DNA of 64,000 bases from a candidate division WWE3 bacterium (GCA_943354835.1 CALRDH010000002.1:106270-170269), one strand, 5' to 3'. Positions 20,546 through 48,209 are shown, counted from the first letter of the stretch. The notes: a model not told the origin generated them from the sequence alone. Numbers and translations: made by a program.

Positions 20546-20564
20546 TTATCAAGCACTGATAAAT
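20546..20564. repeat. Direct repeat (left copy) flanking Fic cassette
   Basis: ttatcaagcactgataaat; 18/19 identical to 21536..21554; both copies overlap a stop codon and encode the C-terminal residues FISA. Confidence 0.8.
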
Positions 20565-27192: not shown

Positions 27193-29316
27193 TTAAGAAG
27201 TAAATACCAATGGCTGTTCAAACGGTAAAACAATTATATTTACTCTTACATGCTCGTTTTCTCTAAATAACACCACTTCTCCTATTCCCAAATGTCCAAG
27301 TTGCTGTTTTTCCTCATCAGTCATCGGGTAAATGGTTCCGATATCGCCAAGTGTTGCATACGACTGTTTTAGTAGGATTTTTGTTTCTGAGTTTGTAACA
27401 ATTGCCTTACCGTACTCATTATCTAAAAAGTCCTCAACATCTTGAGTAATAGAAACAACTCCAATATTTCGTTTTCTAGCTTGCTTTACAAGCTCTCTAA
27501 AAAATACCGCCACCTCAGGGTCAATTAATAGTTTGTGAGCCTCATCAATAAAAAGCATTCTCTTTTTGCCATTGTATTTGTTCACTAAATTCCAGATTAG
27601 TGAGGTTAAAAGATACATTGCAGGATCACGTTTCTCATCTTTTTTTAGATCGTGTAAATCAAGCACAATAATATCGTTATTAAGCTCAAGCTTTCGAGAC
27701 GAATTAAATACTCCGCGCAGACTACCAGTAGATAGAACACTTAAATCTTTTTGCATTGGGTGATCATTTAATAGCTCAAGTAAATTTTCAAATGTCGGGG
27801 TTCCTTGATCATAAAGTTTTATAAGTGCCTCATCTAAAAATGCACCGTCATAATGTACAGGGGGAATAAAGAACTTAAAAAAGGTCTTGAGTGTTGAAAT
27901 ATGATCAAGAATATCGTTTTCTTGCAGACTTGAAACATAAAAAGGATTAATGCCGTTTTCTCTTGAGAAAGAGATAACTTCTCCACCAAGTGCTTTTGCA
28001 ATATTGACATATTCGCCTTCTGGATCAATGACAATAATCTGCACACCTCGCATATACAGCCTATTCATAAGTATTTTTGCAGTCACACTTTTACCCGATC
28101 CAGATACTCCAAAAATATTTATATTATTGTTTCGTGATGTAAACGGATTAACGAACGCCAAGCTGTTGTTATAAGCGTTTACACCCATAAATATACCTTC
28201 TGGATCATTGAGTTGCTTTGAAACAAAAGGAAGTAAGTACGAAGCCGCAGTAGATTGCAAAATTCTATTTTCTTGTACATGATCAATATTAAATGGTAAA
28301 AAGTTTTTGAATGCCTGTTTTTGACCGTAGGTATATTGATTAAAAGTCATGTCCATTGTTCCAGTGATGTTTTGAAGTTGTTTATGAAGATCTGAAAGCT
28401 GTTTTGTATCTTTGGCTTCAAGTTGTAAATAAAGTGAGTATAAAACGCCTTTTTCAGCCTCATGCACTAACTCATCAATAAAGCTCATAACCTCTTCAAT
28501 ATTTTTATCAACCTGTTGATCTCGAAGTTTCCCTTGTTTTAACCTCTCATTTTGTTGCATCTCTAAAACAGACAATCTTTGTCGTGCTTTTTTCAAAAGT
28601 TCACTACTTGGAGATGGTTGAATAAAAATACTTATGGTAAATGGCAACGCGGAGCTTAAAAGCCTAAAAAATACATAGGGACTTAAATAAGCTGGAATAT
28701 CGGCAAGATAGTAGTATCGTTTTAACTTTTCTCCTACTTGAACATGGCTATCATGTTCTTGAATATACTCACTCTTGTATATTTTATGACCATTTCGTTC
28801 GACCTTTAGACCATTTGCATCATTTTCAATGTTCAGGTGTACTTCGGCTTTCCGAGAAGTTTCCAAAGCTTTGTAGTATAGTTTCAAGTCTTTCCTATAC
28901 TTAAAGTAATTGCGGACAAACCAAATTGGATTTTTTGTTTTTACAATTGATGGTTTATGAACAAGTGGCAACTGATTATGAATAAACGGAGTTTGCTCAA
29001 TAAGTTCTTGTTGTTTTTCAATAACACTCATCAAGCGTTTTATCTCATCTCGTAGGGCTAGTTTTAGTTTGCTATCATTTATTTTAGGTTCTCCATTAAA
29101 AAAACTTTCTTCAATTTCTGAAATACCTTTGCTTTTTGTTTTATAAATAGCATATTGTCGTTTTAGCTTTTTAAGCTCTTCATCTTGTTTTTCTTTCTCA
29201 TACGAAAGGTGCTCCAAGCGATTTTGAAGTCTTTGACTTAAATTAAAGACACGAATATCGTTATATGTATTCTTTATTTTGTTTTTAATGGTTATAGGTA
29301 TAGCTTTTATTTTCAT
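27193..29316 (-). CDS. VirB4-family type IV secretion ATPase
   Basis: Walker A GVSGSGKSVTAK, Walker B RMLFIDEAHKLL, C-terminal VSITQD; 707 aa. Confidence 0.85.
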   Translation of the reverse strand: MKIKAIPITIKNKIKNTYNDIRVFNLSQRLQNRLEHLSYEKEKQDEELKKLKRQYAIYKTKSKGISEIEESFFNGEPKINDSKLKLALRDEIKRLMSVIEKQQELIEQTPFIHNQLPLVHKPSIVKTKNPIWFVRNYFKYRKDLKLYYKALETSRKAEVHLNIENDANGLKVERNGHKIYKSEYIQEHDSHVQVGEKLKRYYYLADIPAYLSPYVFFRLLSSALPFTISIFIQPSPSSELLKKARQRLSVLEMQQNERLKQGKLRDQQVDKNIEEVMSFIDELVHEAEKGVLYSLYLQLEAKDTKQLSDLHKQLQNITGTMDMTFNQYTYGQKQAFKNFLPFNIDHVQENRILQSTAASYLLPFVSKQLNDPEGIFMGVNAYNNSLAFVNPFTSRNNNINIFGVSGSGKSVTAKILMNRLYMRGVQIIVIDPEGEYVNIAKALGGEVISFSRENGINPFYVSSLQENDILDHISTLKTFFKFFIPPVHYDGAFLDEALIKLYDQGTPTFENLLELLNDHPMQKDLSVLSTGSLRGVFNSSRKLELNNDIIVLDLHDLKKDEKRDPAMYLLTSLIWNLVNKYNGKKRMLFIDEAHKLLIDPEVAVFFRELVKQARKRNIGVVSITQDVEDFLDNEYGKAIVTNSETKILLKQSYATLGDIGTIYPMTDEEKQQLGHLGIGEVVLFRENEHVRVNIIVLPFEQPLVFTS

Positions 29317-30122
29317 CGTAGTGTTTGTTTTGCAAAACTTATTAACTCGTCAACCTCCAAAGCGCGTACTTGTATGTTGCAAGCAAAAAGAGCAGAAGAA
29401 AAACGCATAGTCATGTCATGTAACTTTTTCATACTCGCCAGCTTTTCATTGGGTTTTGTCGGGTTACAAGATACCGTAAAAACGGCATAATGCTTTGTTG
29501 CTGTAAAGTTACTTTCATTTATCATATCGGTTAAGTTTTCAATGTACTGTGCAATCAAAGGCTCGCGTTTAGTATTTGATTTTGCATAGAGCGAAAAGAA
29601 ATGTTTTGAGTAGTCTTGTGTTTTAGCCTGTTCTTTTTTCACAATAAACTGCACTTGATCTGGCAAAACATGAAGCATTTGTTTTAACTTTAAAAAGAAG
29701 TGTTCTCGATCTTGATCATTTAAAAGTGATATATCAAAAGGCTCAACTTCTAAAAGTTGAATAATGCTATTTTTACGAATAACCAAGTTGTCTTGAATAG
29801 TAAAATCAACAAAGTATGGTTCTAGTTCTTTTTGTCTAAATGTTTTCTTGCCCTTTTTAAACATAATTGCTCTTGGAAAAATTTTATAAATTGGTTGATT
29901 ATCAATTCTTTGAGTTATAAATCCTACAAAAGCTATCTCAAGTACAATAAGTGAAGCCAAGTACATATTCCAATTAAATGCATGAAATACATATGTAAGC
30001 AAAAAGTACAAACTTCCTGCAATAAACACCCCTCCAACTAAAAAGATGGTGCTGTCTGTAAAAAACAGACTTCTTAAAATGTGTTGACGAATATCGTCTT
30101 TATATATTCTTACGTTTTTCAT
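29313..30122 (-). CDS. Small T4SS-associated membrane protein (hypothetical)
   Basis: Two TM helices; translationally coupled (4-nt overlap) to VirB4; start trimmed to MKNVRIY. Confidence 0.4.
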   Translation of the reverse strand: MKNVRIYKDDIRQHILRSLFFTDSTIFLVGGVFIAGSLYFLLTYVFHAFNWNMYLASLIVLEIAFVGFITQRIDNQPIYKIFPRAIMFKKGKKTFRQKELEPYFVDFTIQDNLVIRKNSIIQLLEVEPFDISLLNDQDREHFFLKLKQMLHVLPDQVQFIVKKEQAKTQDYSKHFFSLYAKSNTKREPLIAQYIENLTDMINESNFTATKHYAVFTVSCNPTKPNEKLASMKKLHDMTMRFSSALFACNIQVRALEVDELISFAKQTLR

Positions 30123-31863
30123 TTTTGTTATATGAATACATTCGAATGATAGAATCGGCCGTTTCTTTTCCATGTCGTTCGATAATTACTCCTTTAATTC
30201 CAAGCGCACTATTTCTTTTTTGCGAAACATCTAAAAAGTTTCTAACCTTTTCAGGAGGGCTTGATTTTGTAACATAGGCATAGCTAATTGCTTTGCCTTG
30301 TTTTTGTGATTCTTGCATAGCGTTGTAATGATGAGGGTTTGGATTTTTCTTGCTAAAGGTTGAAAGATCAATAAAGCGATCTTCTTCCAGTTGAACTGTT
30401 TCAAGTTTATCCTCTGATACACCATCTTGAACGGCTTCCATTCGCGTTGGATAGTACGAGGTAAGACCTGTTTGTTTGTCTTCATGTTTGTATGCTTCAC
30501 CACTAATTGCAACTATCCCTTGTTTTGCATTTTCGGTTTGTATATTTAGTCCTTTCCCTTCGAGATCTTTTGAGAATCTTGTTTTTTGACTACTTGGTGT
30601 GACTTCACTTACTGTATGGCTTGAGGTTTCATTTGAGTATGTATTCTTGTTTGTTGATCCACCCCCACCGTAAAATTCGTTTTCTTTAGAATCCGATCTA
30701 TTTTTTAGTATTTGGTCTCGAACAAAGTGTCCTGCAACTGTGCCTAAGCTTCCACCGATCAAACCTCTTTGAAAATCTTTGACCTGAGATTGTACTGGTC
30801 CAGTTACTGCTCTTGTAGCCATTGCAGCCTGCATATTTGTGGCAAACGATCCCCAAGTGTCACCAAATATTCTTCCAACAAGCATGTTTACTCCACCTAA
30901 AAAGAATAAAAAGCCGGTGTAAAAAAAGAGCATTCCAACTGTTGGCCCTTTTGAACTTAAAATACTGCTAAAGATATCATTGGCAATTGCAAAACCAAGT
31001 ACAAATGCTGGTTGCTGAATTAAAAAGGTAAACCATGTTTTAAAAAAGGTGTTTACTATTCCTTGAGTTCTCTCAGACAAAGCAAATGGAATAATGATTG
31101 GATACAATACTCCTAAAAATACGAGTGATGCAAACCGAATAACAAACTGAAAACCAATATATACAAATCCTCCGAGTAAAAATAGAAATGTAAGGACAAA
31201 TAAAAATGTTTGTACAATAAATTTGCCAAATGACTTGAGCACTCCGCCATTCATCGAAACATCGTAGCTTGGAATACCATATTGCTCTGATTCATTACCT
31301 GCCTGAATTTTTTCTTCTGATGAATCAAGATAATCATTTAAAAACCCAGTAAATTGTTGAGTTGTTGTGATTTTATCTACCAATAAGTTATTAAACTGAA
31401 TACTGTACGATAAGATTGATGGGACGGTTAAAAACAAAACTACGGTAATAAGAAAACGAATTCCAAATGATTTTAGCTCTTGAAGGTTATCTGATCCTAT
31501 TTTTGAGACGGCTATTACTGCAATTGATATAGCAATAATAGGTATGGCAAGTTGGTTAAAAATATCTCGGTATTTTGTAACTCCAGGAATTTCTGTGTTG
31601 TCTTTTAGTTTTATAGTTTCTCCAAAAGGGTTTGGAGTATAAAAAATGAATCCTCCCATAAATGAGTCAAATCCAGCGATAAAATCTTGAAGTAAAGTAA
31701 TGATTGATGAAGGCTTGTCTTCAACCGTAAAGTTGTTTACCCATTGTACTTGTGGTGGAGGAGTTGGTGTTGGTGCGGGCTCTTGTGCAAAAGCGGGAGA
31801 AATATTAGCGAATGTGAGAATGCACAAAAAGATAATTAGTTTTAATGCTTTCATGCATATCAA
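30100..31863 (-). CDS. VirB6/TrbL-like polytopic T4SS membrane protein
   Basis: Signal peptide, Pro/Thr-rich linker, at least 6 TM helices, hydrophilic C-terminal extension. Confidence 0.5.
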   Translation of the reverse strand: MICMKALKLIIFLCILTFANISPAFAQEPAPTPTPPPQVQWVNNFTVEDKPSSIITLLQDFIAGFDSFMGGFIFYTPNPFGETIKLKDNTEIPGVTKYRDIFNQLAIPIIAISIAVIAVSKIGSDNLQELKSFGIRFLITVVLFLTVPSILSYSIQFNNLLVDKITTTQQFTGFLNDYLDSSEEKIQAGNESEQYGIPSYDVSMNGGVLKSFGKFIVQTFLFVLTFLFLLGGFVYIGFQFVIRFASLVFLGVLYPIIIPFALSERTQGIVNTFFKTWFTFLIQQPAFVLGFAIANDIFSSILSSKGPTVGMLFFYTGFLFFLGGVNMLVGRIFGDTWGSFATNMQAAMATRAVTGPVQSQVKDFQRGLIGGSLGTVAGHFVRDQILKNRSDSKENEFYGGGGSTNKNTYSNETSSHTVSEVTPSSQKTRFSKDLEGKGLNIQTENAKQGIVAISGEAYKHEDKQTGLTSYYPTRMEAVQDGVSEDKLETVQLEEDRFIDLSTFSKKNPNPHHYNAMQESQKQGKAISYAYVTKSSPPEKVRNFLDVSQKRNSALGIKGVIIERHGKETADSIIRMYSYNKNEKRKNI

Positions 31864-31865
31864 AG

Positions 31866-32150
31866 TTATACGGTTCCACCAACAAATTGCTTAATAATTC
31901 CAGCCAATGTTGCGGCACCAAATACAAGTAAACCACCGATTAGAATATTGATGATCCAACCTCTAAGTGTTGATTTACGCTCAGTATCATCTCCGCTCAT
32001 AACTAAAAAGATACCAAGTGTAGCAATGGCGATAGCCATAACAGGAAGAGAATACCATTGAAGAGTCTTGACTATACCCCATAGAAGACTGTCAAGGTTT
32101 GTGAACTGAATGGGTTGAGCTGCGTCATACCCCGGTATTCCGTTTGCCAT
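31866..32150 (-). CDS. VirB2/TrbC-like pilin subunit
   Basis: 94 aa with two hydrophobic helices in hairpin arrangement; first gene of the operon. Confidence 0.5.
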   Translation of the reverse strand: MANGIPGYDAAQPIQFTNLDSLLWGIVKTLQWYSLPVMAIAIATLGIFLVMSGDDTERKSTLRGWIINILIGGLLVFGAATLAGIIKQFVGGTV

Positions 32151-32366: not shown

Positions 32367-35042
32367 ATGAAATTTAAATTTGAATCTAATCTAAAATTTC
32401 AACTAGATGCTATATCATCTGTGACTGATTTATTTGTAGGTGCTCCATTTATCAAACCAGAGGAAGCTATCTTTTCTGAAGTCGCTAGTAATGTTTTAAG
32501 AATATCTCCAGAGGAAATATTTGCCAATCGTGACAAAGTTATAAAAAATAATGGTATTACGAACTCCTGTAAGGAAGATGTCTTAGATTTTTGTGTTGAG
32601 ATGGAAACAGGTACAGGGAAAACCTATGTATATCTAAGAACTATCCTCGAGCTTCACCAAAAGTATGGTCTTTCCAAATTTATTATCGTTGTGCCAAGCG
32701 TTGCGGTTAAAGAGGGAGTAATGAAAACCCTACAGATCACCAAAGATCACTTTGAGGAACTTTATAACTCTATCCCCTATAGTTACTTTGAGTATGACAG
32801 CAAGAAAATAAATAAAGTAAGAAGCTTTGTTTACTCTAATCACCTGCAAATCATGATAATGAATGTTCAAGCATTTAACGCTGATGACAGAATTATTAAT
32901 CAAGAAAGAGATTCAAATAATGGTGAAAAACTAATTGATTTAATAGAGAAAATCAGCCCTGTTTTGATACTAGATGAACCTCAAGTTGGCATGGATACAT
33001 CCAACACAAAAGATAGAAGAAGAAAACTTAACCCACTTTTTACCCTTCGTTATAGCGCTACTCATAAAGTAGTAAAGAATCTGATTCATAGGCTTAGTCC
33101 TTATGAAGCCTACAATCAAGGTTTGGTCAAAAAAATTGAAGTTTTTTCAATTCATGAGAGCAATACCCAAAGCAATGTTTATGTTGAATTTGAAGGTATT
33201 AAGTTGACCAGTGATAAGCCACAGGCAAAACTCAAGATTAGTTATAGGCTTGCTAGTGGGGATTTTAAGATAAAGTCTGGATATTTTAAAGATGGTGATG
33301 ATCTAGAAGAAAAAACTAAAAACCCTGTATATAAAGGGTGGGTTATCGAAAGAATACTCAAAGATCCTCTAAATGGTACGAGCACGATTAAATTTAGTAA
33401 TGGCATAAACTTAACACAGGGCGAATCGCACGGTATAGATAAAGAAAGTATCTTTAGAGAACAGATTCGCTGGACAATCAAAAAGCACTTCGATAAAAAG
33501 GATAAGTATAAAGATAAGAAAATTAAGGTTTTATCACTCTTTTTTATAGATAGAGTAGCTAATTATATAGAAGACAATTCATTAATAAGGGTCTTATTTG
33601 AGAAAGTTTACACTGAGGAGTATAAAAATAGATATAAAATTCTACCAGACAATATATCCAAGGTTCATGATGGGTATTTTGCAAAGACTTCACAAGGAGA
33701 CTATACCGATAGTGAACTATCAATGAGTAAAAACAGTGAAGCTTACCAAAAGATTCTAAAAGATAAAGAAAGACTACTTTCTTTTGAAGAACCGCTTGAA
33801 TTTATTTTCTCTCACTCAGCCTTGGGTGTTGGTTGGGACAACCCCAATGTTTTTAATATCTGTACTCTGAATGAAACTGAGAGTTTAATCAAAAAACGAC
33901 AGGAAATAGGGAGAGGCTTACGTTTAAGTGTTACTCAAGATGGTGTTCGATACAGAGACTCGCTAGATGTTGAAGAAGGCAAGGAAATCAACCTGCTAAC
34001 GGTAGTAGCAAACCAAAGCTATTATGCCTTTACTCAGTCTTATCAAGAAGAATTGATAGCAGAATATGGCTTTGGTGAAAAAAAACCAGATATTAGAAAT
34101 GCTAGACATGAACCAAAGCAAATTAGACTTAATAAAAATGCTATTACAAGCAATGATTTTCAAAACCTTTGGAAAAAAATATCTCAAAAAACCAGATGTA
34201 AGGTTTTCTTTAGGGAAGATTCAATTATTGAGAAATGTATTGAAAGTTTAAACACAATTGTTGTCCCAGAAGTTGTCATATCAATTAACTTAAATAGAAT
34301 TACGGGAATTTTAGAACAAGAAGAAGACATGATTCAAAGCAAGAATGTGGGCCAAACAGAAGCAGAAACCAAAGCCAAGTTTGCTCCTATGAATCTCTTT
34401 GAAGAAATTGCAAAAAATACAGCCTTGAGTGTAGCTACTGCTACTAAGATTTTAGAAGGCGTTCATAACAAGCAAATGATCATAAGAAACCCAGTCGTTT
34501 ATCTTACAGAAGCGATTAAACGTATTAAAAGAGTTTTAAATGATGAAATGGTTAGATTAGTTAGATATGAAGCTTTAAATGAGAGTTACTCACTTAAAGA
34601 ATTTGAAGATGTAGTTACAACTTATCAGCAAAGTAACATCATCGAAGTTAATAAGAGCATTTATGATCATGTGATTTGTGACAGCGATATTGAGAGAAAC
34701 TTTGCCTTAGATATAGATGAAGAAAACAAAGTTAGAATGTTTGTAAAACTACCACATTGGTATACTGTACCAACTCCTATTGGAAATTATAACCCAGACT
34801 TTGCTTTGGTACTAGAAAAAAAGAATTTAGATGATGGGGGTAAGTCCAATTTTTACTTTGTAATTGAAACCAAAGGATCAAGAGAATGGGAATCCTTAAA
34901 GGAAGATGAGAAAATGAAGATAGACTGTGCTATCAAGCATTTTGAAGCTATTGGCTTAAAGGAGTATTTAGCTCCAATCGAGAGTATGAGTACTTTTAAG
35001 TCAAAGGCAAATGAAGTTACTGGCGAAAATGTGTTTAGTTAA
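32367..35042 (+). CDS. res: Type III restriction enzyme Res subunit (SF2 helicase-nuclease)
   Basis: Helicase motif I METGTGKTYV, motif II LILDEPQ; N-terminus characteristic of Type III Res. Confidence 0.85.
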   Translation: MKFKFESNLKFQLDAISSVTDLFVGAPFIKPEEAIFSEVASNVLRISPEEIFANRDKVIKNNGITNSCKEDVLDFCVEMETGTGKTYVYLRTILELHQKYGLSKFIIVVPSVAVKEGVMKTLQITKDHFEELYNSIPYSYFEYDSKKINKVRSFVYSNHLQIMIMNVQAFNADDRIINQERDSNNGEKLIDLIEKISPVLILDEPQVGMDTSNTKDRRRKLNPLFTLRYSATHKVVKNLIHRLSPYEAYNQGLVKKIEVFSIHESNTQSNVYVEFEGIKLTSDKPQAKLKISYRLASGDFKIKSGYFKDGDDLEEKTKNPVYKGWVIERILKDPLNGTSTIKFSNGINLTQGESHGIDKESIFREQIRWTIKKHFDKKDKYKDKKIKVLSLFFIDRVANYIEDNSLIRVLFEKVYTEEYKNRYKILPDNISKVHDGYFAKTSQGDYTDSELSMSKNSEAYQKILKDKERLLSFEEPLEFIFSHSALGVGWDNPNVFNICTLNETESLIKKRQEIGRGLRLSVTQDGVRYRDSLDVEEGKEINLLTVVANQSYYAFTQSYQEELIAEYGFGEKKPDIRNARHEPKQIRLNKNAITSNDFQNLWKKISQKTRCKVFFREDSIIEKCIESLNTIVVPEVVISINLNRITGILEQEEDMIQSKNVGQTEAETKAKFAPMNLFEEIAKNTALSVATATKILEGVHNKQMIIRNPVVYLTEAIKRIKRVLNDEMVRLVRYEALNESYSLKEFEDVVTTYQQSNIIEVNKSIYDHVICDSDIERNFALDIDEENKVRMFVKLPHWYTVPTPIGNYNPDFALVLEKKNLDDGGKSNFYFVIETKGSREWESLKEDEKMKIDCAIKHFEAIGLKEYLAPIESMSTFKSKANEVTGENVFS

Positions 35043-35081
35043 ATTTTTTTTGAGAGTATTATAAAAAGAACAGTTAAGAAT

Positions 35082-37034
35082 ATGAAAAATATTACAACAA
35101 ATATTACAAATAAGATTGACAAACAGTCACCTGATCTTCGTCAAGAAATGTTGGATAAGTTAAAAAAGCTATACCCCCCTCTTTTTGATAACGAAGGCAT
35201 GTTAAATCAAGATGAGCTAGAGCAATTAGTAAGTGACTTTTCTACTCCCCAAACAGAGAAATATGAGTTTAACTGGGCTGGTAAACAGCAATCCAAGAAA
35301 AAAGCCTTTACTGCAAGTAAAGCAACTCTTAGAAGCGATGAAAAACGCAGTGTGGATTTTAATAATACAGATAATCTTATTATTGAAGGTGATAACTTAG
35401 AAGTCCTCAAGCTTTTACAAAAATCCTACTTTGGCAAGATTAAATGCATATACATTGACCCCCCCTACAATACCGGAAACGACTTTATTTACCCTGATGA
35501 CTATAGCGAAGACAAACAAGCTTATTGGGAAAAATCAGGAGTTAAGCAAGACGGAGTTAAATTAGATACTAATACTGATTCAAGTGGTCGTTATCATAGC
35601 AAGTGGCTCTCAATGATGTATCCAAGACTTCTTTTGGCTCGCAATTTGCTCAAAGAAGACGGAGCAATATTTGTAAGTATTGACGATAATGAAGCTCACA
35701 ATCTTAGAAAACTGATGGATGAGGTGTTTGGGGAAGAAAATTTTATCACTCAAGTGGTGGTGCAAACTAACCCAAGAGGAAGGTCTTTGGATAGACATTT
35801 TGCTAAGACCTTAGAGTATGTAATAGTGTATGGCAAAAATGCGGATACAAACACTTCAATTTTTGAAATTCAAAAGGGAGAAAAGGCTTTAGCCCAATAT
35901 AATAAAGGTGATAGTCAAGGACAGTATAGATTGCTTGAGCTAAGAAATAGAAACCCTGTTTTTACAAGAAAGAATAGACCTAATTTGTTTTACCCTATCT
36001 TTATCAATAAAGATACTGGCGAAGTTTCCTTGGAAAAAGACGAAGTATTTTCGACTGAAGCACTACCTCTTAATTCTAAAATGGAGGAGGGTTGTTGGAC
36101 TTGGGGTAAGAAAAAGTTTGAGAAAAATAAAAAAGACTTGATTGGGAACCTTGCCTCAACTGGTGTTTGGAGAATATTTCGAAAAGACTATATCCCTAGT
36201 GATGGTGCAACAACAAAAGAGAAAACATTGTGGATTGATTCATCCCTTAATCACGAAAACGGCAAAGAGGAAATGGCCGACTTATTCAATACAAGTGGTA
36301 GTAGTATACCTTTTGACTTTCCTAAATCCGTTGAATATTTAAAAAAAATAATAAATGTATCAACACAGTGGGGTGTGAACGATGTTTGTTTAGACTTTTT
36401 TGCTGGCTCAGGTACTACGGCTCATGCAGTGATGGATTTGAATAAAGAAGATGGAGGTAATAGGAAATTTATCTTGATTCAAATTCCAGAATCTACCGAT
36501 GAAAAGAGTGAAGCCTACAAAGCCGGATACAAAACCATTTCTGAAATTTGTATTGAGCGAGTTAAGCGCGCAAGTAAAAAAATTATAGATGGGGGAAATA
36601 AGATTGATGCTGGATTCAAAGTATTTAAGCTTGCTTCTAGCCATTTTCCAGAAAATACTTTTGCCCCTAATCCAGAAAAAAATGATGAAGAAAATAAAAA
36701 AGCCTTAGTGGCATATATTAGTAAGGCTATTTCTCAAAAGGGTTTGTTTAAAGATGGAGTTGTTGATTTAATTTATGAGATTGCTCTGAAAGATGGATTT
36801 GAGCTAACGCTCAAGATGTATAAGGTAAAGGAATTTGATGAAAATGTGGTTTATAAAGTCACAGACAGTCATAAAGAAGCCCTTATTTGCGTGGATGATA
36901 GTTTGGAAGATGCCACTATCAAACAACTTGAACGCCACAAAGACCAAAGATTTATTTGTTTACATACAAGCCTAAACACTACAAAAAAGTGGAATTTACA
37001 AAATATTCTTGGAAGTAATTTATGGTTGGTGTAA
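35082..37034 (+). CDS. mod: Type III N6-adenine DNA methyltransferase Mod subunit (beta class)
   Basis: Motif IV DPPY before motif I FFAGSGTTAHAV. Confidence 0.9.
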   Translation: MKNITTNITNKIDKQSPDLRQEMLDKLKKLYPPLFDNEGMLNQDELEQLVSDFSTPQTEKYEFNWAGKQQSKKKAFTASKATLRSDEKRSVDFNNTDNLIIEGDNLEVLKLLQKSYFGKIKCIYIDPPYNTGNDFIYPDDYSEDKQAYWEKSGVKQDGVKLDTNTDSSGRYHSKWLSMMYPRLLLARNLLKEDGAIFVSIDDNEAHNLRKLMDEVFGEENFITQVVVQTNPRGRSLDRHFAKTLEYVIVYGKNADTNTSIFEIQKGEKALAQYNKGDSQGQYRLLELRNRNPVFTRKNRPNLFYPIFINKDTGEVSLEKDEVFSTEALPLNSKMEEGCWTWGKKKFEKNKKDLIGNLASTGVWRIFRKDYIPSDGATTKEKTLWIDSSLNHENGKEEMADLFNTSGSSIPFDFPKSVEYLKKIINVSTQWGVNDVCLDFFAGSGTTAHAVMDLNKEDGGNRKFILIQIPESTDEKSEAYKAGYKTISEICIERVKRASKKIIDGGNKIDAGFKVFKLASSHFPENTFAPNPEKNDEENKKALVAYISKAISQKGLFKDGVVDLIYEIALKDGFELTLKMYKVKEFDENVVYKVTDSHKEALICVDDSLEDATIKQLERHKDQRFICLHTSLNTTKKWNLQNILGSNLWLV

Positions 37035-37060
37035 ATAAATAATGCATATATCTAAGCTGT

Positions 37061-39076
37061 ATGGATAAACTCTTACATGAAAATATAGAAATCGGCGGCG
37101 AAGGAGTTAAATCAATCCTAGCTAAATTTAAACCAGAAGAGGCGATAGCTGAGTTTATCTGGAATGGTTTTGATGCAAATGCAACTGAGGTCAATCTCGA
37201 CTATGATGTTTCTAGGGAATTGGGTGAGGTAGAGTTTATAAAGATATCAGATAATGGAACTGGAATTCCTCAAAATAAATTAAATAACAAATTCAAACCG
37301 TTTTTTGAATCAGAAAAAGCCAAAAATGGAAAAGATAAATCTCACCACTCTCTTACTCACGGAAAAAATGGAATTGGGCGCCTGACATTTTTTACCTTCG
37401 CAAACAAAGCTTGCTGGACAACAAGATACGAAGAAGAAACGCAGATAATTAAAGAATATGATATTGAGATTCAATCAAGGGATATAGAAAACTATACAGG
37501 AAGCAATACAGATCTTAGAGGTACGAATGAGAAGACAGGAACAGTTGTTGAGTTTACAGGCATAAATAAGTTAAACAAATATGACTTTGAAGGAAAAGTG
37601 TTAGAGCATCTACGCCAAGAGTTTGGTTGGTTTTTAGAAATATTTTCAAAATTAGGCTATTCACTTAATATTAATGGTAATAAACTTGACTATTCTAAAA
37701 TTATTGGAGATAGGGACTCAATAACTTTAAAGTATGCTGCTAATGACACGCAGTTTAATCTAGGTTATATTCGCTGGAATACGCACCTGAAAAATGAATA
37801 CTCAAGATTTTACCTTTTAAACAGCAAAGGGAAAGAGATTTGGAAGGACACTACCAAACTTAACAATAAAGGAGACTCTTTTTACCACAGCATTTTTGTT
37901 AAGAGCGATTATTTTGATAATTTCACTTACGATGAACAACAGTCAAATGGAGAAATAACACTTTTTGGTCACTCCAAAGAAGATGAAGAATATAAATATA
38001 TTGAAGAAGAAATAACAAATTATTTAAGAAAAAAAAGAAAACCTTTTTTAAAAGAGTTTGCAGAACAGTTAGTTAATACATATGAAAATGAAGGTATCAT
38101 GCCCACTTTTCAATCAGAATGGGATAAACCTAGGAGGGAAGAATTAAGAAATGTCATAAAGAATCTCTATGAGGTCGAGCCAAAAATATTCAGTCAATCA
38201 AGTATTGAACAAAAAAAGACATTTGTTAGACTACTAAATACTTTGTTAGATACTGAAGATAGAGAACGTATTTTACAGATTATTAAGGAGGTAGTAGATC
38301 TTGACGAACAAGAGCAAACTGATTTATTAGATCTACTTAAAGCTACAAAACTAGATAGAATAATCTCTACAATTAAATTTATTCAAAATAGATATAAAAC
38401 AATTGATGAGCTGAAAGCGATTGTTTTTGATAAAGAATTAAAAGGAAATGAACGAGACCATATTCAGAAATCAATAGACTTTAATTATTGGATATTTGGG
38501 GAGCAATACCATTTACTATCTACAACTGAGGCAAAGTTTGATACAGCATTAAGACAATACACTTCATATTTAACTGAGTCGCAAGACATAATTCCTATTA
38601 CACATATAGATAAAAATAAAGAAATGGATATATTTATGTGTAGACAAATGAAAGGAATCAATAAAATTGAAAATATTGTAGTGGAACTAAAAAGCCCTAG
38701 TGTGAATTTGGGTGAAAAGGAAGTGAGTCAAGTGAAGAAGTATATGAGTGTGATTTTAAGCACTGATCAATTCAATAGTGACAATACGTACTGGGAATTT
38801 ATCTTAGTTGGCAACAGATTTGATTCTTCTGGATATATTGAAGGGGAGCTTGAAAATAGTAAAGGGCATGGTGAACGAAATAATGGACTAATTTTTAAGA
38901 ACGATAAATATAGAATTTATGTAAAAAAATGGAGTGAGATTTTTGAAGAATTTGAAATAAGGCATAAGTTTATTGAAGAAAAGTTAGAAATCGCACGAGA
39001 TAGTATTGCATCAAATTATTCTTCCGCAGATGAAATTATTCAAATACAACAAGATAGATCTCAAAAAGTTATTTAA
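37061..39076 (+). CDS. GHKL (MORC/MutL-like Bergerat-fold) ATPase fused to C-terminal PD-(D/E)xK nuclease-like domain
   Basis: Bergerat motif I EFIWNGFDANATE (ExxxNxxDA), motif II ISDNGTGIP, G-box HGKNGIGRL; C-terminal MDIF...IVVELKSP candidate D...ExK; 26 bp downstream of mod on the same strand. Confidence 0.55.
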   Translation: MDKLLHENIEIGGEGVKSILAKFKPEEAIAEFIWNGFDANATEVNLDYDVSRELGEVEFIKISDNGTGIPQNKLNNKFKPFFESEKAKNGKDKSHHSLTHGKNGIGRLTFFTFANKACWTTRYEEETQIIKEYDIEIQSRDIENYTGSNTDLRGTNEKTGTVVEFTGINKLNKYDFEGKVLEHLRQEFGWFLEIFSKLGYSLNINGNKLDYSKIIGDRDSITLKYAANDTQFNLGYIRWNTHLKNEYSRFYLLNSKGKEIWKDTTKLNNKGDSFYHSIFVKSDYFDNFTYDEQQSNGEITLFGHSKEDEEYKYIEEEITNYLRKKRKPFLKEFAEQLVNTYENEGIMPTFQSEWDKPRREELRNVIKNLYEVEPKIFSQSSIEQKKTFVRLLNTLLDTEDRERILQIIKEVVDLDEQEQTDLLDLLKATKLDRIISTIKFIQNRYKTIDELKAIVFDKELKGNERDHIQKSIDFNYWIFGEQYHLLSTTEAKFDTALRQYTSYLTESQDIIPITHIDKNKEMDIFMCRQMKGINKIENIVVELKSPSVNLGEKEVSQVKKYMSVILSTDQFNSDNTYWEFILVGNRFDSSGYIEGELENSKGHGERNNGLIFKNDKYRIYVKKWSEIFEEFEIRHKFIEEKLEIARDSIASNYSSADEIIQIQQDRSQKVI

Positions 39077-40577
39077 TTAAATATTTCAAAATAGTGTATA
39101 TCTTCAACATCGCCATTGTGTCCATTTCACAGTACCTGAGTAGGTTTTCTTTAATTGTTTCTTTTTTTGAAGTTTCTGCATTTTCATATACCATTTCAAA
39201 CCAGCTCGTCATGGCTGTTGCGCCTTCTCCAATTTCGAGTTCATTGTATGAAAAATCAGGAGCAAAAAGTGGAAGCACATTTTTTATTGAGTAACTCCCT
39301 TTTAGTTTTGGATCTGCGTACCATTGTTTTTGAAATATATCCATGAGGTCATAGATCCGCTCATTCATATTTAGGCAAAAATCTGCAAACTGAGGGTGAA
39401 TTTCTGCCATGCGTTTATTTTGTGTTCCTTCAAATGATTTATTCCAAACGATAAGCGAGCCTTCTTTTCCAATGTGTTTTTGCAGTTCTGTCAAAAAGTT
39501 TGGGATAGGATCAATTTGAGACGTTTCTATAAATTCAAAATGTTCTAGCTCTCGGCCTTGTTGTTGTATGTGCAGTGACCACTGAAAAGGCATCTGATCA
39601 AATGGTTTGTAACCATCATACATAGGAATAGCCGGGTTATATGATTCATAATCGATAAAATAAAGTGGGTAGATTACTCCACTTAAATCTTTTTGAATCT
39701 TGTTTGAATCGATCTCAACCTTATTGTTTTGAGCAACATCTACTTGAAAGCGTTGTATTTTTGAAAGTGAAAAGTCTTTTGGTACATCAAAAACACTTTC
39801 AATACCTTGATCAATAAGATCTCGCATCTTGGCAACATTCGCCGATAATCGATTAATATCGTAGATAGAATAATCTGGAAGATCTGGGTGACAGATATCG
39901 AGACAAGGACACTCTTTTGGTTTAATGCATTTATCAGCAGATTGTAGATTGTTTTTTTGGGCTGTAGTAAAAGCTTCTTGTCGTAACTCTATAACTTCAT
40001 CGGTTAGTTTGCTAACTTCTTCTGTAATATCAGAGACAGTGAATAATTCAGATAGGCTTACATCTCCACTGCGTACATATTCTTTATTAAGATGTAGTAT
40101 GTTTAGCGTTCCTATGTCGTAAGACTCTCTAAATACGAGGTATTGAAAAGTGGCATCGAATTTGTGTGTCTTTTTAACATCATTGGTACTTTTGATTTCA
40201 TAAATATCCCACTTATTTGTTTTGACGTTTTTAATGAGAACATCTGTTCTTGCCTGAAAGTTGCCGTGTATGTGTGTTGGCTGTAAAAATACATTATCAG
40301 GGTCAATCTTGTAACTTGGGATGAGGATGTTCTGAATGTATTTTTCAGCTTGCTCTTCTACCTCATACCCTTGATCGAATAGGTGTTGAATAAAAACATT
40401 TATTTCTTTTTCAGAAAGCTTATTGTTTTTCAGTGCCCAGAGATGCCGTGGAGCATCGAGGAAAGCTATAAAGTCGGTTTTTGTGATCATCATGTATCTT
40501 CCGATTATACTGGAAAATGAAATTATATCTCTCATTATTGGGTGGTTTTCCCTTTTCTTCCTATCATGCTTCTTCAT
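39069..40577 (-). CDS. DUF2779-like dual nuclease: RecB/Cas4-like PD-(D/E)xK with 4-Cys cluster plus C-terminal DEDDy 3'-5' exonuclease-like domain
   Basis: N-terminal D(VLI)...YEIK...QYLVF (D, ExK, QxxxY) and CIKPKECPCLDIC cluster; C-terminal Exo I DYE, Exo III YCEMD; 8-nt convergent overlap with 37061..39076. Confidence 0.55.
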   Translation of the reverse strand: MKKHDRKKRENHPIMRDIISFSSIIGRYMMITKTDFIAFLDAPRHLWALKNNKLSEKEINVFIQHLFDQGYEVEEQAEKYIQNILIPSYKIDPDNVFLQPTHIHGNFQARTDVLIKNVKTNKWDIYEIKSTNDVKKTHKFDATFQYLVFRESYDIGTLNILHLNKEYVRSGDVSLSELFTVSDITEEVSKLTDEVIELRQEAFTTAQKNNLQSADKCIKPKECPCLDICHPDLPDYSIYDINRLSANVAKMRDLIDQGIESVFDVPKDFSLSKIQRFQVDVAQNNKVEIDSNKIQKDLSGVIYPLYFIDYESYNPAIPMYDGYKPFDQMPFQWSLHIQQQGRELEHFEFIETSQIDPIPNFLTELQKHIGKEGSLIVWNKSFEGTQNKRMAEIHPQFADFCLNMNERIYDLMDIFQKQWYADPKLKGSYSIKNVLPLFAPDFSYNELEIGEGATAMTSWFEMVYENAETSKKETIKENLLRYCEMDTMAMLKIYTILKYLIK

Positions 40578-41233: not shown

Positions 41234-41560
41234 GTGAAAGTTATGAAATTATTAACAAAGGAATTGTTGATGAGGTTTGAGAAGGTTGGCAGACAAGAGG
41301 ATGATAAAGATCCGATTGTTATTGCAAAGTTCTTTAATCCAACAGGAGCAGGTACTTGGCTTGCAACTGAGTACGATCCTCATTCAAAAGAATTCTTTGG
41401 ATTTGTATCGATATTTGGTGATTACAACGACGAGTGGGGATACTTTTCTCTTGATGAGCTAGAAAGCTACATTGGTAGATTTGGCTTAGGCATTGAAAGA
41501 GATAGGTATTTTACCGAGAAACGAATGAGTGAGGTAATGCCAAGTGCAATACTAGAGTAA
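41234..41560 (+). CDS. Small conjugative-element-associated protein (DUF2958-like, hypothetical)
   Basis: 108 aa with RBS AAAGGAGGTG; such families commonly sit next to RadC in ICEs; assignment tentative. Confidence 0.35.
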   Translation: MKVMKLLTKELLMRFEKVGRQEDDKDPIVIAKFFNPTGAGTWLATEYDPHSKEFFGFVSIFGDYNDEWGYFSLDELESYIGRFGLGIERDRYFTEKRMSEVMPSAILE

Positions 41561-41568
41561 GTTAAACT

Positions 41569-41600
41569 AATCCGTGGGTAGTGAAAGCTACCTGCGGATT
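41569..41600 (+). terminator. Hairpin (13-bp stem, 6-nt loop), copy 1 of repeated terminator-like module
   Basis: AATCCGTGGGTAG-tgaaag-CTACCTGCGGATT; module GAGTAAGTTAAAcTAATCC... repeated at 41795. Confidence 0.55.
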
Positions 41601-41641: not shown

Positions 41642-41800
41642 ATGATAAACCCATTACTAACCGAACCATTTGAGAGTGAGATTTTAGAGCTGATTGAAAC
41701 GAGTGACGAGTTTACAACCAGCGACCTACAAGGCGTTGTTACCGTGTTGGTGAACAAGATTATGATTAAAGGGCACGAGATTTTGAAAGAGTCAGAGTAA
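41642..41800 (+). CDS. Small acidic hypothetical protein (52 aa, below ORF-track cut-off)
   Basis: ATG at 41642, stop TAA at 41798-41800; followed by hairpin copy 2. Confidence 0.25.
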   Translation: MINPLLTEPFESEILELIETSDEFTTSDLQGVVTVLVNKIMIKGHEILKESE

Positions 41801-41808
41801 GTTAAATT

Positions 41809-41851
41809 AATCCGTGGGTAGTTGCCAACAGCTACCTGCGGATTTTTTTAT
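41809..41851 (+). terminator. Rho-independent terminator (hairpin copy 2 plus T-tract)
   Basis: AATCCGTGGGTAG-ttgccaacag-CTACCTGCGGATT followed by TTTTTTTA. Confidence 0.7.
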
Positions 41852-42672: not shown

Positions 42673-43437
42673 TTATTCGTCAATCTCCACCTCGCTCCAC
42701 ACATCCCCAGTTGCACCTAGTTGTTTAATTTGTTCTTTGGTTGTTGTTTGAAATGTTAGGTTTTCTATCTGCTCGTTTCTGCAAATTAGTTTTACTTTTT
42801 TAGTAACATATTCTTCAATTTCATTGTTTGGGCAGATAAATAATATTGTGGGTATCTGTTCTTGTTTGATCCAGTCTCCTTTTGTAAAGAAGGTTATATA
42901 TTGGTTTATTCGGTTAAGAATGAAAAAGCGGGGTTTTTCTGGAAATATCTCTGCTATTAAGTATGGTTTCGTCTTCCCCTTGCGGAAGACGAAGAAAGGA
43001 AAAATTTCTTTGATAATCCCGTCTAGTGAGTATTCTGATCTTGTGTAGAAGGTAAGTCCTTCTTTTGTGCCGTATTTCTTTAGTAGATTGATATAAATGT
43101 CTGCAATTAAAACACAGTTTTCAATAAATTTAGTGGATCTTGTATCTTCTTGATATAGCTTTGTAATGTATGCCTGTTCTGCGTAATCTTGAGTTTTGAT
43201 AAACTTCATTCCATTAGTTTTAAGATAGTAAACCGCCGGTTGGTTATTTATTTTTGAAGTTGTATCTAATTTTCGACCTGTATAGCCTTTATCCGTTAGA
43301 TCTTTTAGCCATGCGTTTATTCTGTTGTATGTTTTGTGGTTAAGTAATGTTTGTATCTGGATTCTATTGAGGAATCTGAATTTATAGAGTAAATATAGTA
43401 TAGTTTTTTGTGTATTTGTTATTGTAGGTAGTTTCAT
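42673..43437 (-). CDS. Replication-relaxation family protein (wHTH)
   Basis: N-terminal LTNTQKTILYLLYKFRFLNRIQIQTLL; directly downstream of the coupling protein. Confidence 0.5.
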   Translation of the reverse strand: MKLPTITNTQKTILYLLYKFRFLNRIQIQTLLNHKTYNRINAWLKDLTDKGYTGRKLDTTSKINNQPAVYYLKTNGMKFIKTQDYAEQAYITKLYQEDTRSTKFIENCVLIADIYINLLKKYGTKEGLTFYTRSEYSLDGIIKEIFPFFVFRKGKTKPYLIAEIFPEKPRFFILNRINQYITFFTKGDWIKQEQIPTILFICPNNEIEEYVTKKVKLICRNEQIENLTFQTTTKEQIKQLGATGDVWSEVEIDE

Positions 43438-43581
43438 TTTTTTATTTAATGATTCGTTCTTTTTGTAGTACGAATTTTTCTTTTCCTTATTCATAAGGAA
43501 TAAAGAGTACAAAAAATATTTTGTTTTTCCTTTTATATCAACTAATACTCAATTAATTTTGTGTTAGCTGATGACACAAGA

Positions 43582-46260
43582 TTATATTGATTTTCTTTTA
43601 GATTCACCCTGTTTACTGCTATCTTTTTTCTTGCTCTTAGACTTTTCGGCTTTTGTTGCAGGTTCAACTATTTTTAACTTTTCATCTAACTTTTTTAAAG
43701 TCTCTACATCTGCACCATATTTAGCTCTTGAATTTTCAATTACCAACTGCTCAATGTTTTCATCCTTGGGAGTTGTAAAGTCATAAGTACTACCAGTAAA
43801 TGCATCTTGTGGAATTACACCATTTATTTTTATGTAAAAGTTAAATGAAGGTAAGTTTGCTATTTGGTGTTCTTTAACCTGAGGAGCAAATAAAGGTAGA
43901 ATAAAATCCTCATCTGTTGGGTTGCTTGTTCTATAGGAAACAACGGTACCTACATTTGCAAGAATAACTTTTAACAAGTCTTGATCTTCTATTTGAGAGA
44001 TGGTTTGGTGTGCAAGTATTGTATCAAGCCTGTATTTGCGCGCTTCGGATAAGATTTGGGCAAAAGTCATAGTAGCAAAGTTTTGAAACTCATCTATGTA
44101 TAAAAAGAAATCTTCACGCTTATCTTGTGAAATATGGACTCGGTTTAAGGCGGCTAACTGCAACTTAAGAATAAGTAAGCTTCCTAAAAATGACGAAATA
44201 TCCTCACCTATTTTCCCTTTTGATAGATCACAAATAAGAATCTTTTTGTTGTTCATAATATCGTCAAAGTCAAGTTTGCTATTTTCTTGGGTCAAAATGT
44301 TTCTGGTTGTTTTAGTGGTAAAAAATCTACCAAGTTTATTGGTAATTGGTGAAATAAGCTCAGCTCTTTGGAAACTTCCAAAACCTTTAAACTCTTTCTC
44401 CCAGAATTCTTTAAGTAACGGATCTTCAAGTTTGGAAACAATGGTATCTCTCAAGTTTTTATCTACCAGCATTTTATATGCGGTAAGTAATGTGGGTTTT
44501 TCTGTTGAAAGAATGGCTAAAATAGTATTTCGCAGTACATGTTCCATTCGAGGGCGGGCAGTATTAGATGGGTAAAGCTTTAAAAACACAGAAATAAGGC
44601 TTGAAACGATAAGATCTTTTTCCCGTTCCTTTTCAACATCAGATAAACCTTGGGTCATTTGCAATACATTTAAACCAATAGGATGCTCAAGGTCATACGG
44701 ATTGAAGTAAATTACATCTTTGATTCTATCTTTTGGAATAACACCAATTAGCCTAGTTGCTAAATCTCCGTGTGGATCCATTACAGCTACACCTTTCCCG
44801 TTTTTTATATCTTGATAGATCATTTGTAGCAAAAGTGTGGTTTTGCCCATACCAGTTGCACCGATCAGGTACATGTGCCTTCGTCTTTCTTCTATCGTTA
44901 ATCCTATTGGGGTAATGCTTTCACCATGAATATTGTGCGCAAATACAATATCAAGATTTGAAGGATTTTTAAGACTAATTGGTGCTGGTAAATGTGACGA
45001 TTTTATTGATTGTAAGTCCTCGGTTTGAGTAGTTAGTGTAAATGGAAAGTGATAAATTGTTGAAAGTTCTGATACTGAAAAGATTGGATTAGAAGTAAAC
45101 GAGAACAATCGATACTTGAGACGTAAAAAGTTTAGCTTGGTAAAGAGTGAGTTAAAGTGTGCTGATTTAACCTTAAGAGACTGATAGCTAAGATTGGTAT
45201 ATGTTGCAAAGTTTCCTATAATCCCCTTTTTTCTAAGCTCAATATTATTTTTAGAAGTTCCAACAACTAAAAGTCGCATAGTTACCTCAAATAAATCTTG
45301 ATTAATTTTTGACTCTACAACTTCTTGTATCTGGCTTTGTTTTGGTGTTAGTTCAATTATTTGATCAGTTGTACTCTTTTCTTGTTCAAGCACGTATTTG
45401 CTTGGATATTTTGGCGATGCCATTGCAAAATCCATAATCCATTTAGTAAGGTCTTTTAGAAGAAGTACAAAAAGATCAAAAATAAAAAGTGGGATTACTT
45501 TTAGTGTATGTAATGTTTTTGCAAAAGAACTGTTTTGAATATATGAAACAATTTCTTTCCCTTCGTAAATACGTTTTTGTAGCTTAAATAAGTAATCTGC
45601 AATGTGCCCATGGTAGACAGGCGTTACAGGAGAAGTGACCAATTGCAAAGTAATTAACTCATCTGGCTCAAGTTTTGTCATCTGTCCGGTGATATATGCA
45701 ATCGGATCGTGCTCACCAAGTACATTTTGTTCTTTTAACGGAAGTACAAAGTGATTTTTAAGTTTGAATTCGGTAAACGAATATTTTTTGCTTTCTAAAT
45801 CTTCTAAAGACTTTGGCAAGTGGTCGGAAATTTGCTGAATTTCAATACCTGGAAGGTACGAAAGTAAGTTTTTACGAAGAATTGAAACATATTCTTTTGG
45901 TGTATAAATTATGTAGCGAATTCCATCACTTCTGCTAGAAGCTATTTCATAGCTGACACGTTTTTTGTTTCTGAGTAATCGGTCTAAAAGTGTTGGCTTT
46001 GTATCAAGCGAATGAAGAATAGTAAATAGCTGTTTGGTAGTAAATGCCGTTTGTAATGATATAGATGGAGGTTTTATCTCTAATAAAACATACGAGCCTT
46101 GAAGTGATTTTTTAAACTGTAGATATTTAAGAACACTAAGACCGATAAAAAAGAAAAAGGTGGCAAAAAAAACCACAGTAATCCATGAAATATTTGCTCC
46201 TATTAAAATTAGTTGGGCAAGTGTCGGTGGGATTACATCAGACCAGTTTATATTTTCCAT
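43582..46260 (-). CDS. Type IV coupling protein (VirD4/TraG/TraD-like T4CP)
   Basis: N-terminal TMs; Walker A LIGATGMGKTTL, Walker B FFLYIDEFQNF, AHQTISQ motif; lysine-rich C-terminal tail. Confidence 0.85.
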   Translation of the reverse strand: MENINWSDVIPPTLAQLILIGANISWITVVFFATFFFFIGLSVLKYLQFKKSLQGSYVLLEIKPPSISLQTAFTTKQLFTILHSLDTKPTLLDRLLRNKKRVSYEIASSRSDGIRYIIYTPKEYVSILRKNLLSYLPGIEIQQISDHLPKSLEDLESKKYSFTEFKLKNHFVLPLKEQNVLGEHDPIAYITGQMTKLEPDELITLQLVTSPVTPVYHGHIADYLFKLQKRIYEGKEIVSYIQNSSFAKTLHTLKVIPLFIFDLFVLLLKDLTKWIMDFAMASPKYPSKYVLEQEKSTTDQIIELTPKQSQIQEVVESKINQDLFEVTMRLLVVGTSKNNIELRKKGIIGNFATYTNLSYQSLKVKSAHFNSLFTKLNFLRLKYRLFSFTSNPIFSVSELSTIYHFPFTLTTQTEDLQSIKSSHLPAPISLKNPSNLDIVFAHNIHGESITPIGLTIEERRRHMYLIGATGMGKTTLLLQMIYQDIKNGKGVAVMDPHGDLATRLIGVIPKDRIKDVIYFNPYDLEHPIGLNVLQMTQGLSDVEKEREKDLIVSSLISVFLKLYPSNTARPRMEHVLRNTILAILSTEKPTLLTAYKMLVDKNLRDTIVSKLEDPLLKEFWEKEFKGFGSFQRAELISPITNKLGRFFTTKTTRNILTQENSKLDFDDIMNNKKILICDLSKGKIGEDISSFLGSLLILKLQLAALNRVHISQDKREDFFLYIDEFQNFATMTFAQILSEARKYRLDTILAHQTISQIEDQDLLKVILANVGTVVSYRTSNPTDEDFILPLFAPQVKEHQIANLPSFNFYIKINGVIPQDAFTGSTYDFTTPKDENIEQLVIENSRAKYGADVETLKKLDEKLKIVEPATKAEKSKSKKKDSSKQGESKRKSI

Positions 46261-47999: not shown

Positions 48000-48209
48000 A
48001 TGAGTAAAGAGTTACTAGAAAAATTTAAAAAGCTATATTACGAGAAGTTTGGTATTGCTCTTGGCAACGAAGAAGCAACAGCAATGGCAAATGATCTTGT
48101 TAACTTAATGAAAGTACTATTAGAACCAGATAAGTCGAAAAGTACAGAATTCAAGTTGGAAGAAAGGAGCGAATATGCGACTATCGAAACACAACAACAA
48201 TACATTTAA
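48000..48209 (+). CDS. Small hypothetical protein (possible excisionase/RDF-like accessory)
   Basis: 69-aa ORF immediately upstream of, and overlapping, the recombinase start. Confidence 0.3.
   Translation: MSKELLEKFKKLYYEKFGIALGNEEATAMANDLVNLMKVLLEPDKSKSTEFKLEERSEYATIETQQQYI

Follow-up and report, generated by a model that had tools for sequence, protein, structure and literature searches.

A predicted GHKL ATPase-nuclease encoded behind a Type III restriction-modification pair in a candidate division WWE3 bacterium

What is the role of an ATPase-nuclease gene that directly follows a Type III restriction-modification (R-M) pair? The question is raised by a stretch of 64,000 nucleotides from a candidate division WWE3 bacterium (GCA_943354835.1, CALRDH010000002.1:106270-170269), called the window here, in which three genes, res, mod and a third gene (X), follow one another on the + strand at positions 32367 to 39076 (Table 1). 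An initial annotation of the window took X for a dedicated third component of the Type III enzyme. The contexts of its relatives point elsewhere. We estimate a probability of about 0.6 that X encodes an autonomous, ATP-gated defence nuclease, which is carried as cargo within the Type III R-M operon. The protein itself is, judged from its sequence, a GHKL ATPase fused to a PD-(D/E)xK nuclease.

The restriction-modification pair and the third protein

By their profile matches and motifs, the products of res and mod are a complete Type III R-M pair. Res matches Pfam ResIII (E 2.9e-13) and RE_endonuc (E 1.7e-33) as well as PADLOC REase_III (E 2.8e-211). It carries the SF2 helicase motifs GTGKT (aa 82), DEPQ (203), SAT (230), and QEIGRGLR (512), and a PD...ETK motif at aa 810-836. 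Mod matches Pfam N6_N4_Mtase (E 4.4e-32) and PADLOC MTase_III (E 1.2e-171), and its DPPY motif (aa 126) stands ahead of FAGSG (aa 440), the order of the beta class. Both proteins score below the NCBIfam equivalog cut-offs and are therefore divergent enzymes. The helicase motifs of Res, the DPPY and FxGxG motifs of Mod, and a 671-aa gene on the same strand after gaps of 39 and 26 bp had all been described in the initial annotation, and all are confirmed, coordinates included. That annotation also derived co-transcription from the tight spacing. Since neither gap (res-mod or mod-X) shows a terminator-like hairpin in a consensus scan, it is plausible that the three genes form one transcription unit; the spacing stands as described, and co-transcription is graded as plausible only.

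The third protein matches Pfam HATPase_c_3 (E 5.6e-19, aa 25-141), and all four Bergerat motifs are present: EFIWNGFDA (aa 31), DNGTGI (64), GKNGIGR (101), and GT (160). Near the C-terminus it has a candidate nuclease core, D523...E542-L-K544. In an alignment of 83 family members, ten residues of the ATPase domain (E31, N35, D38, D64, G66, G68, G101, G104, G106, and R107) are invariant, and T161 is kept in 82. On the nuclease side E464, Q469, W477, G480, E481, D523, E542, K544, and Y561 are invariant in all 83. Because of this invariance the motifs, which were first noticed in the sequence alone, are not chance matches. The catalytic residues are equally invariant in the 63 solitary members and in the 20 that are embedded in R-M operons.

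Structure prediction gives the GHKL fold that the profile search also finds. The AlphaFold model (mean pLDDT 78.7) falls into four parts: after the GHKL domain come a middle domain rich in beta structure, a long stretch of helices, and an alpha/beta domain at the C-terminus; a segment of low confidence (aa 80-103) lies where the ATP lid would be. Foldseek matches in the PDB, aligned over about 400 columns (E 1e-9 to 3e-11), are to the N and middle domains of TRAP1/Hsp90 and to the ATPase modules of MORC3/4; their TM-scores are low owing to the domain arrangement. When the C-terminal 232 residues are modelled alone (pLDDT 86), they take up a restriction-endonuclease fold, in agreement with the PD-(D/E)xK core proposed initially.

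At the sequence level the nuclease domain is hard to place. Its sole match is to HSDR_N_2, below threshold in 22 of 23 members. A comparison with DUF4263/Shedu profiles had been suggested, and the outcome is negative: Pfam SduA_C (DUF4263, PF14082) matches none of the 23 members at E<=1 and none of four distant homologues. Among the same 27 proteins, NucS models are unmatched save for one sub-threshold NucS_C match. A direct sequence search of solved structures with the nuclease domain returns nothing at E<=10. The PADLOC SduA model has a weak match to the third protein (E 0.003), confined to aa 406-483 ahead of the catalytic core, and matches a Deinococcus homologue at E 0.02. A C-terminal profile compared by hhalign with 45 neighbouring proteins, canonical Shedu included, gives no signal.

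The initial label of the third protein was "MORC-like". A regular-expression search does not find the MORC-specific S5 motif (GhXhhpXXRhl), and therefore a true MORC is rejected and the predicted protein is a paraMORC rather than a MORC. Assignments as a histidine kinase or as a MutL orthologue were also rejected, as those matches are weak and confined to the GHKL domain.

The family, its genomic contexts and the element around the operon

Profile and alignment data place the third protein in a large family whose architecture does not vary. Its homologues, about 660-690 aa long, form 994 clusters at 90% identity, and those listed are nearly full-length. An exhaustive profile search yields 784 representatives at E<=1e-30, rising to 1,837 once the cut-off is relaxed to E<=1e-10; of the best 150, nearly all either measure 650-690 aa or are pieces of proteins of that size. 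Among about 185,000 species genomes, at least 497 contain a relative, and these come from Patescibacteria, Bacteroidota, Chloroflexota, Bacillota, Cyanobacteriota, Pseudomonadota, and Acidobacteriota as well as from several archaea. In RefSeq they are annotated merely as "ATP-binding protein".

Distant full-length homologues (22-42% identity) are found on 47 plasmids, including those of Streptomyces, rhizobia, Phaeobacter, Salmonella, and Psychrobacter, and in two Pasteurella phages, Pmp14 and Pmp3 (H31/H32). The homologue on the Psychrobacter plasmid has a dcm/LlaMI Type II pair and a Drt2 gene as neighbours and is encoded on the strand opposite to LlaMI. At two loci (L031, 10004-12031, and L082, 5631-7637) two adjacent ORFs take the place of the single gene, which probably reflects frameshifted pseudogenes or errors of assembly.

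Genomic context was surveyed at 83 non-duplicate loci, in which ORFs were called and neighbours were labelled by Pfam and iterated profiles. As the best tblastn matches, the 80 genome loci over-represent relatives of the window protein; the ORF calls were simple and certain contigs short. The initial annotation asked whether homologues lie with R-M genes elsewhere, and they do. At 17 of the 80 genome loci the gene is part of a tight same-strand R-M operon (Type I, Type III, or PLD-SNF2/methylase), and R-M genes lie within 10 kb at 22. About 60 have no tight same-strand partner and look solitary. The survey found no conserved partner gene other than R-M genes. Downstream of solitary copies, the only conserved second gene encodes a 276-aa protein in three closely related Bacteroidota. 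The remaining neighbours are defence genes (canonical Shedu, TIR, AbiEii-like AAA, HipA, NERD) or housekeeping genes. Note that Pfam SduA_C scores 1.7e-19 on a neighbouring canonical Shedu protein.

The position of X within R-M operons varies. Bacteroidota have hsdR(EcoEI type)-X-hsdS-...-hsdM, with gaps of 1-4 bp and a 14-bp overlap. In Saccharibacteria (L080, 9956-17911, and L008) the order is hsdM-X-hsdS-reverse transcriptase (517 aa)-hsdR, with overlaps or gaps of 1-8 bp. A Methanosarcinaceae archaeon has a PLD-SNF2 helicase, an Eco57I-type methylase, and X; Moranbacteria have mod...res...X; and a Type III operon in an Uhrbacteria genome reads mod-X-ThsB-ThsA-res (L010, 10001-16217). In this last operon a Thoeris-like pair, consisting of a ThsB-like TIR protein and a ThsA-like Macro protein, is nested amid the Type III genes, before res. 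Schlafen/AlbA2, a RecD-like helicase, and a NERD nuclease are further cargo in other operons that bear X. In all 20 embedded cases in tight operons the R-M system is of the SF2-helicase kind (Type I, Type III, or PLD-SNF2) and in none is it Type II.

The same variation is seen close to the window protein. Its three closest metagenomic relatives, 59-63% identical to it, are all embedded in R-M operons, with the layouts mod-X-res, PLD-SNF2/methylase-X, and hsdR-X-hsdM-hsdS. On a neighbour-joining tree seven of the nine members of the window clade are embedded, in three kinds of R-M system, and parsimony requires at least 12 changes of context across the tree. The window and its closest Type III-linked relative (P0002) share 63% identity in X, only 38% in Res and 34% in Mod, and their gene orders differ (res-mod-X in the window, mod-X-res in the relative). 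Therefore, X moves independently of any particular R-M partner.

The operon looks like cargo of an integrative conjugative element at positions 20278-50002 of the window, with tRNA genes on one side and a large serine recombinase on the other (Table 1). Besides type IV secretion and mobilisation genes, the element encodes an M23 peptidase and, as further cargo, Fic, RhuM, RadC, and a DUF2779/Cas4-like nuclease. Judged by the closest relatives, the host probably belongs to the candidate phyla radiation. Flanking direct repeats were not found at its ends, as is expected because the recombinase is of the serine type. A tRNA-Leu(GAG) gene, detected by ARAGORN and Rfam, lies wholly inside the last 90 bases of the recombinase ORF and may mark the integration site. 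The gene that converges on X encodes a DUF2779/Cas4-like protein. A DUF2779 homologue is also found about 1.6 kb downstream of another relative (P0008), near a serine recombinase, and this pairing may recur. Downstream of RadC, in a region of short ORFs, there is a 29-nt direct repeat (41554-41582 and 41794-41822; 97% identical, 240 bp apart).

Table 1. Features of the operon, the third protein and the surrounding element (positions in the window)
Feature	Position	Strand	Description
res	32367..35042	+	891 aa; SF2 helicase with C-terminal PD-(D/E)xK endonuclease, predicted Type III restriction subunit
res-mod spacer	35043..35081	+	39 bp, from sequence; no terminator-like site
mod	35082..37034	+	650 aa; predicted Type III beta-class N6-adenine methyltransferase
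mod-X spacer	37035..37060	+	26 bp, from sequence; no terminator-like site
X (third gene)	37061..39076	+	671 aa; predicted paraMORC3-type GHKL ATPase-nuclease; homologues full-length
GHKL (Bergerat) ATP-binding domain, ~aa 5-166	37073..37558	+	HATPase_c_3, invariant residues, Foldseek
Beta-rich middle (S5/transducer-like) domain, ~aa 173-290	37577..37930	+	model secondary structure, Foldseek
Long helical linker region, ~aa 309-479	37985..38497	+	model helices; conserved E464, H467, Q469, W477
C-terminal PD-(D/E)xK nuclease domain, ~aa 481-650	38501..39010	+	predicted catalytic E481/E490, D523, E542, K544, plus Q557, Y561
tRNA-Phe and tRNA-Arg	20278-20505		one side of element
Fic/DOC	20549-21436		left end of element, beside tRNA genes
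RhuM	23017-24012		left end of element
VirB4-like ATPase	27193-29316		type IV secretion
TrbL/VirB6	30100-31863		type IV secretion
VirB2/TrbC	31866-32150		type IV secretion
DUF2779/Cas4-like + RNase_H_2 exonuclease gene	39069-40577	-	converges on X, 8-bp end overlap
Relaxase-like gene	42673-43512		
TrwB-type coupling protein	43582-46260		
Large serine recombinase	48175-49902	+	other side of element
tRNA-Leu(GAG)	49813-49895	-	ARAGORN and Rfam; inside serine recombinase ORF

Weighing the role of the third gene

That X acts on its own is suggested by the large share of loci without a tight partner and by the lack of a conserved partner other than R-M genes. That it is cargo is suggested by its embedding at 17 of 80 loci in operons of three kinds, at varying positions; by the spread of proteins as similar as those of the window clade over all three kinds, with the many changes of context on the tree; and by the other self-contained defence genes (ThsB/ThsA, reverse transcriptase, Schlafen/AlbA2) that share these operons. 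Published systems argue in the same direction. VcSduA of V. cholerae is a single-gene anti-phage system with direct protection (Adams et al. 2025, PMC12137116). It acts alone and protects without loss of the culture, and mutation of either the ATPase glutamate (E27A) or the nuclease lysine (K557A) abolishes protection (PMC12137116). Gu et al. count 602 of 5,499 Shedu genes within R-M systems of types I-IV (bioRxiv 10.1101/2023.08.10.552793), and the nesting of defence genes in defence systems is a general pattern (bioRxiv 10.1101/2024.01.29.577857).

We infer dimerisation, ATP gating, the DNA target, and autonomy in this host as follows. By analogy with GHKL clamps (MutL, Hsp90, MORC) and with VcSduA, the ATPase domains would hold two copies of the third protein together as a dimer. 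The binding and hydrolysis of ATP would gate the access of DNA to the nuclease, which would cut invading DNA directly and independently of the R-M proteins. Helicase-type R-M operons would be landing pads where independent defence genes are co-expressed and co-mobilised. Defence would then be layered: Res and Mod would cut unmethylated DNA and the ATPase-nuclease would add a second activity, possibly on DNA ends made by restriction.

Several observations weigh against an autonomous cargo nuclease. The family has no experimentally tested member, and its link to VcSduA is weak: hhalign gives E 7.5e-5 and 62% probability, in the GHKL domain only, with 399 N-terminal residues of VcSduA compared. 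The hallmark motif of the family is absent from the published 543 VcSduA hits, and SduA_C, as stated above, is matched by none of 23 members. The confinement of tight-operon partners to SF2-helicase R-M systems, without any Type II case, and the embedding of seven of nine genes of the window clade fit functional coupling to translocating restriction enzymes too. Gaps of 1-4 bp and overlaps of 4-14 bp in many operons suggest translational coupling. Finally, with crude gene calls and some short contigs, the count of solitary copies may be too high.

A rival idea, proposed in 2008 by Iyer, Abhiman and Aravind (PMC2292703), makes the protein a genuine accessory subunit of restriction enzymes of the helicase type. 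As a MutL-like ATPase-nuclease it would act in physical contact with the SF2 translocase, be it Res, HsdR, or SNF2-PLD. Its task might be the looping of DNA from the recognition site to the cleavage site, or a second cut once the translocase is loaded. The exclusive association with SF2-helicase R-M in 20 of 20 embedded cases, the frequent embedding in the window clade, and the spacing of a few bases from hsdR, hsdS, hsdM, mod, or res, which suggests coupled expression, would all follow from it, and MORC and paraMORC genes are reported to be associated with Type III-like, HKD-nuclease, and SWI2/SNF2 helicases (PMC2292703). However, linked R-M genes are lacking at about three quarters of the loci, and genomes with a solitary paraMORC3 mostly lack a matching R-M system (Iyer et al., PMC2292703). 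Close relatives swap among three unrelated kinds of R-M system, which makes a specific protein interface unlikely. The third protein is far better conserved than the neighbouring Res and Mod, its catalytic residues are just as invariant in solitary copies, and the Res of the window already has an endonuclease domain of its own. An accessory subunit is thus an unlikely explanation, albeit the strongest of the alternatives, and the dedicated component of a Type III enzyme that was proposed initially is not borne out: Type I, Type III, and PLD-SNF2 operons carry the gene alike, most copies are solitary, and X is conserved beyond Res and Mod.

A functional tie to translocating SF2-helicase restriction enzymes of any type would make the family a MutL-like second nuclease whose licence to cut comes from DNA ends, or from stalled or colliding translocases, that Type I, Type III, or SNF2-PLD systems produce. 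It would explain why every embedded case has a helicase-type R-M system and why the window clade is so often embedded. We consider it doubtful.

Another alternative is a guard. prrC is located within the EcoprrI genes. PrrC is reported to be almost always embedded in Type I R-M systems (bioRxiv 10.1101/2024.01.29.577857), and the position of X in R-M operons, recurrent in the family, resembles that of PrrC. The nuclease would accordingly be a back-up, inactive until a phage anti-restriction protein blocks the R-M system. Most copies, however, have no R-M system to guard, the types of partner differ among close relatives, and the analogue VcSduA protects directly and alone, with no loss of the culture (PMC12137116). 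This makes a guard improbable. A role outside defence, in DNA repair or recombination or in the conjugative element (exclusion of rivals or processing of transferred DNA), is the least probable explanation and quite unlikely, since the patchy distribution in bacteria and archaea is typical of defence genes, the non-R-M neighbours are often defence genes, and X in the window follows res-mod rather than transfer genes, even though it lies amid type IV secretion, relaxase, and recombinase genes, distant homologues reside on 47 plasmids, and repair was suggested by Iyer et al. for copies outside R-M contexts (PMC2292703).

Comparison with known systems

The view that such proteins are essentially uncharacterised in R-M loci, which the initial annotation held, is partly outdated. 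The architecture received the name paraMORC3 in 2008 and has been catalogued among Shedu Type 1D nucleases (bioRxiv 10.1101/2023.08.10.552793), and VcSduA, a distant analogue, was validated in 2025 as a stand-alone defence gene. The idea of a link between GHKL-nuclease genes and R-M goes back to 2008, and with the distant analogue already validated what is gained here is incremental. As an example of a widespread, vaguely annotated ATPase-nuclease family, the locus is clean and compact. Its close relatives, found in Type III, Type I, or SNF2-PLD/methylase operons or alone, are natural material for comparison, and the system lends itself to finding out if the nesting of a defence gene in an R-M operon means no more than shared expression or involves cooperation with restriction. 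The locus is also a case of stacked defence cargo on a conjugative element in the candidate phyla radiation.

The res-mod pair resembles Type III systems of the EcoP15I type. Both have a Res that joins an SF2 helicase to a C-terminal PD-(D/E)xK domain and a Mod of the beta class of adenine methylases, encoded by adjacent genes on the same strand. The order in the window is res then mod, whereas the operons of close relatives (L090 and L010) start with mod.

The third protein shares the Bergerat ATP-binding fold and a transducer domain with MutL and eukaryotic MORC proteins, and it has weak HMM matches to MutL, Mlh1, and PMS1. MutL likewise has an ATPase and an endonuclease on one chain. The nuclease of the third protein is, however, of the predicted PD-(D/E)xK type and not of the MutL metal-site type, and there are no MutS-type partners. 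From eukaryotic MORC proteins it differs in lacking their specific S5 motif.

With canonical Shedu SduA (B. cereus 8ti8/8ti9 and E. coli 8ps4) the third protein shares a D...ExK...Q core. In canonical Shedu one gene suffices for a defence nuclease, the regulatory module at the N-terminus is variable, and R-M systems often enclose the gene (bioRxiv 10.1101/2023.08.10.552793). Unlike it, the third protein has no SduA_C match at E<=1 and no hhalign signal to a Shedu neighbour; canonical Shedu is a tetramer, whereas a GHKL dimer would be expected for the third protein. The same source reports GHKL-fold N-terminal domains among Shedu Type 1D proteins (bioRxiv 10.1101/2023.08.10.552793), and in the accessible part of its table neither HATPase_c_3 (GHKL) nor the motif of the present family nor any of the accessions tested turned up.

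VcSduA (Shedu type I-D) is of similar length (673 aa, compared with 671 aa) and has the same domain order, with a GHKL ATPase, a middle domain, and a PD-(D/E)xK nuclease. Its E27 and K557 match E31 and K544 of the third protein in position, and motif I reads EAVINSIHS in VcSduA and EFIWNGFDA in the third protein. VcSduA adjoins the restriction system GrwAB, yet it works independently of GrwAB.

The closest counterpart is paraMORC3. It was defined in 2008 by Iyer, Abhiman and Aravind as a GHKL domain, an S5 domain, and a C-terminal E-D-ExK domain (PMC2292703). It is reported to be sporadic in prokaryotes, common in Bacteroidetes and Proteobacteria, and tied to SFII-helicase R-M operons, with a stand-alone subset (PMC2292703). 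The third protein shares the intact GHKL ATP motifs, an S5-type middle domain, and the C-terminal E-D-ExK domain, with conserved E481/E490, D523, and E542-x-K544 in a predicted PD-(D/E)xK fold. The sporadic spread in bacteria and archaea, the frequency in Bacteroidota, and the coexistence of R-M-linked copies with a stand-alone subset are shared as well; identity with the present family is judged by these defining features and not by the 2008 seed sequences. Beyond the 2008 picture of paraMORC3 are the strong presence of the family in the candidate phyla radiation and its embedding in Type I operons.

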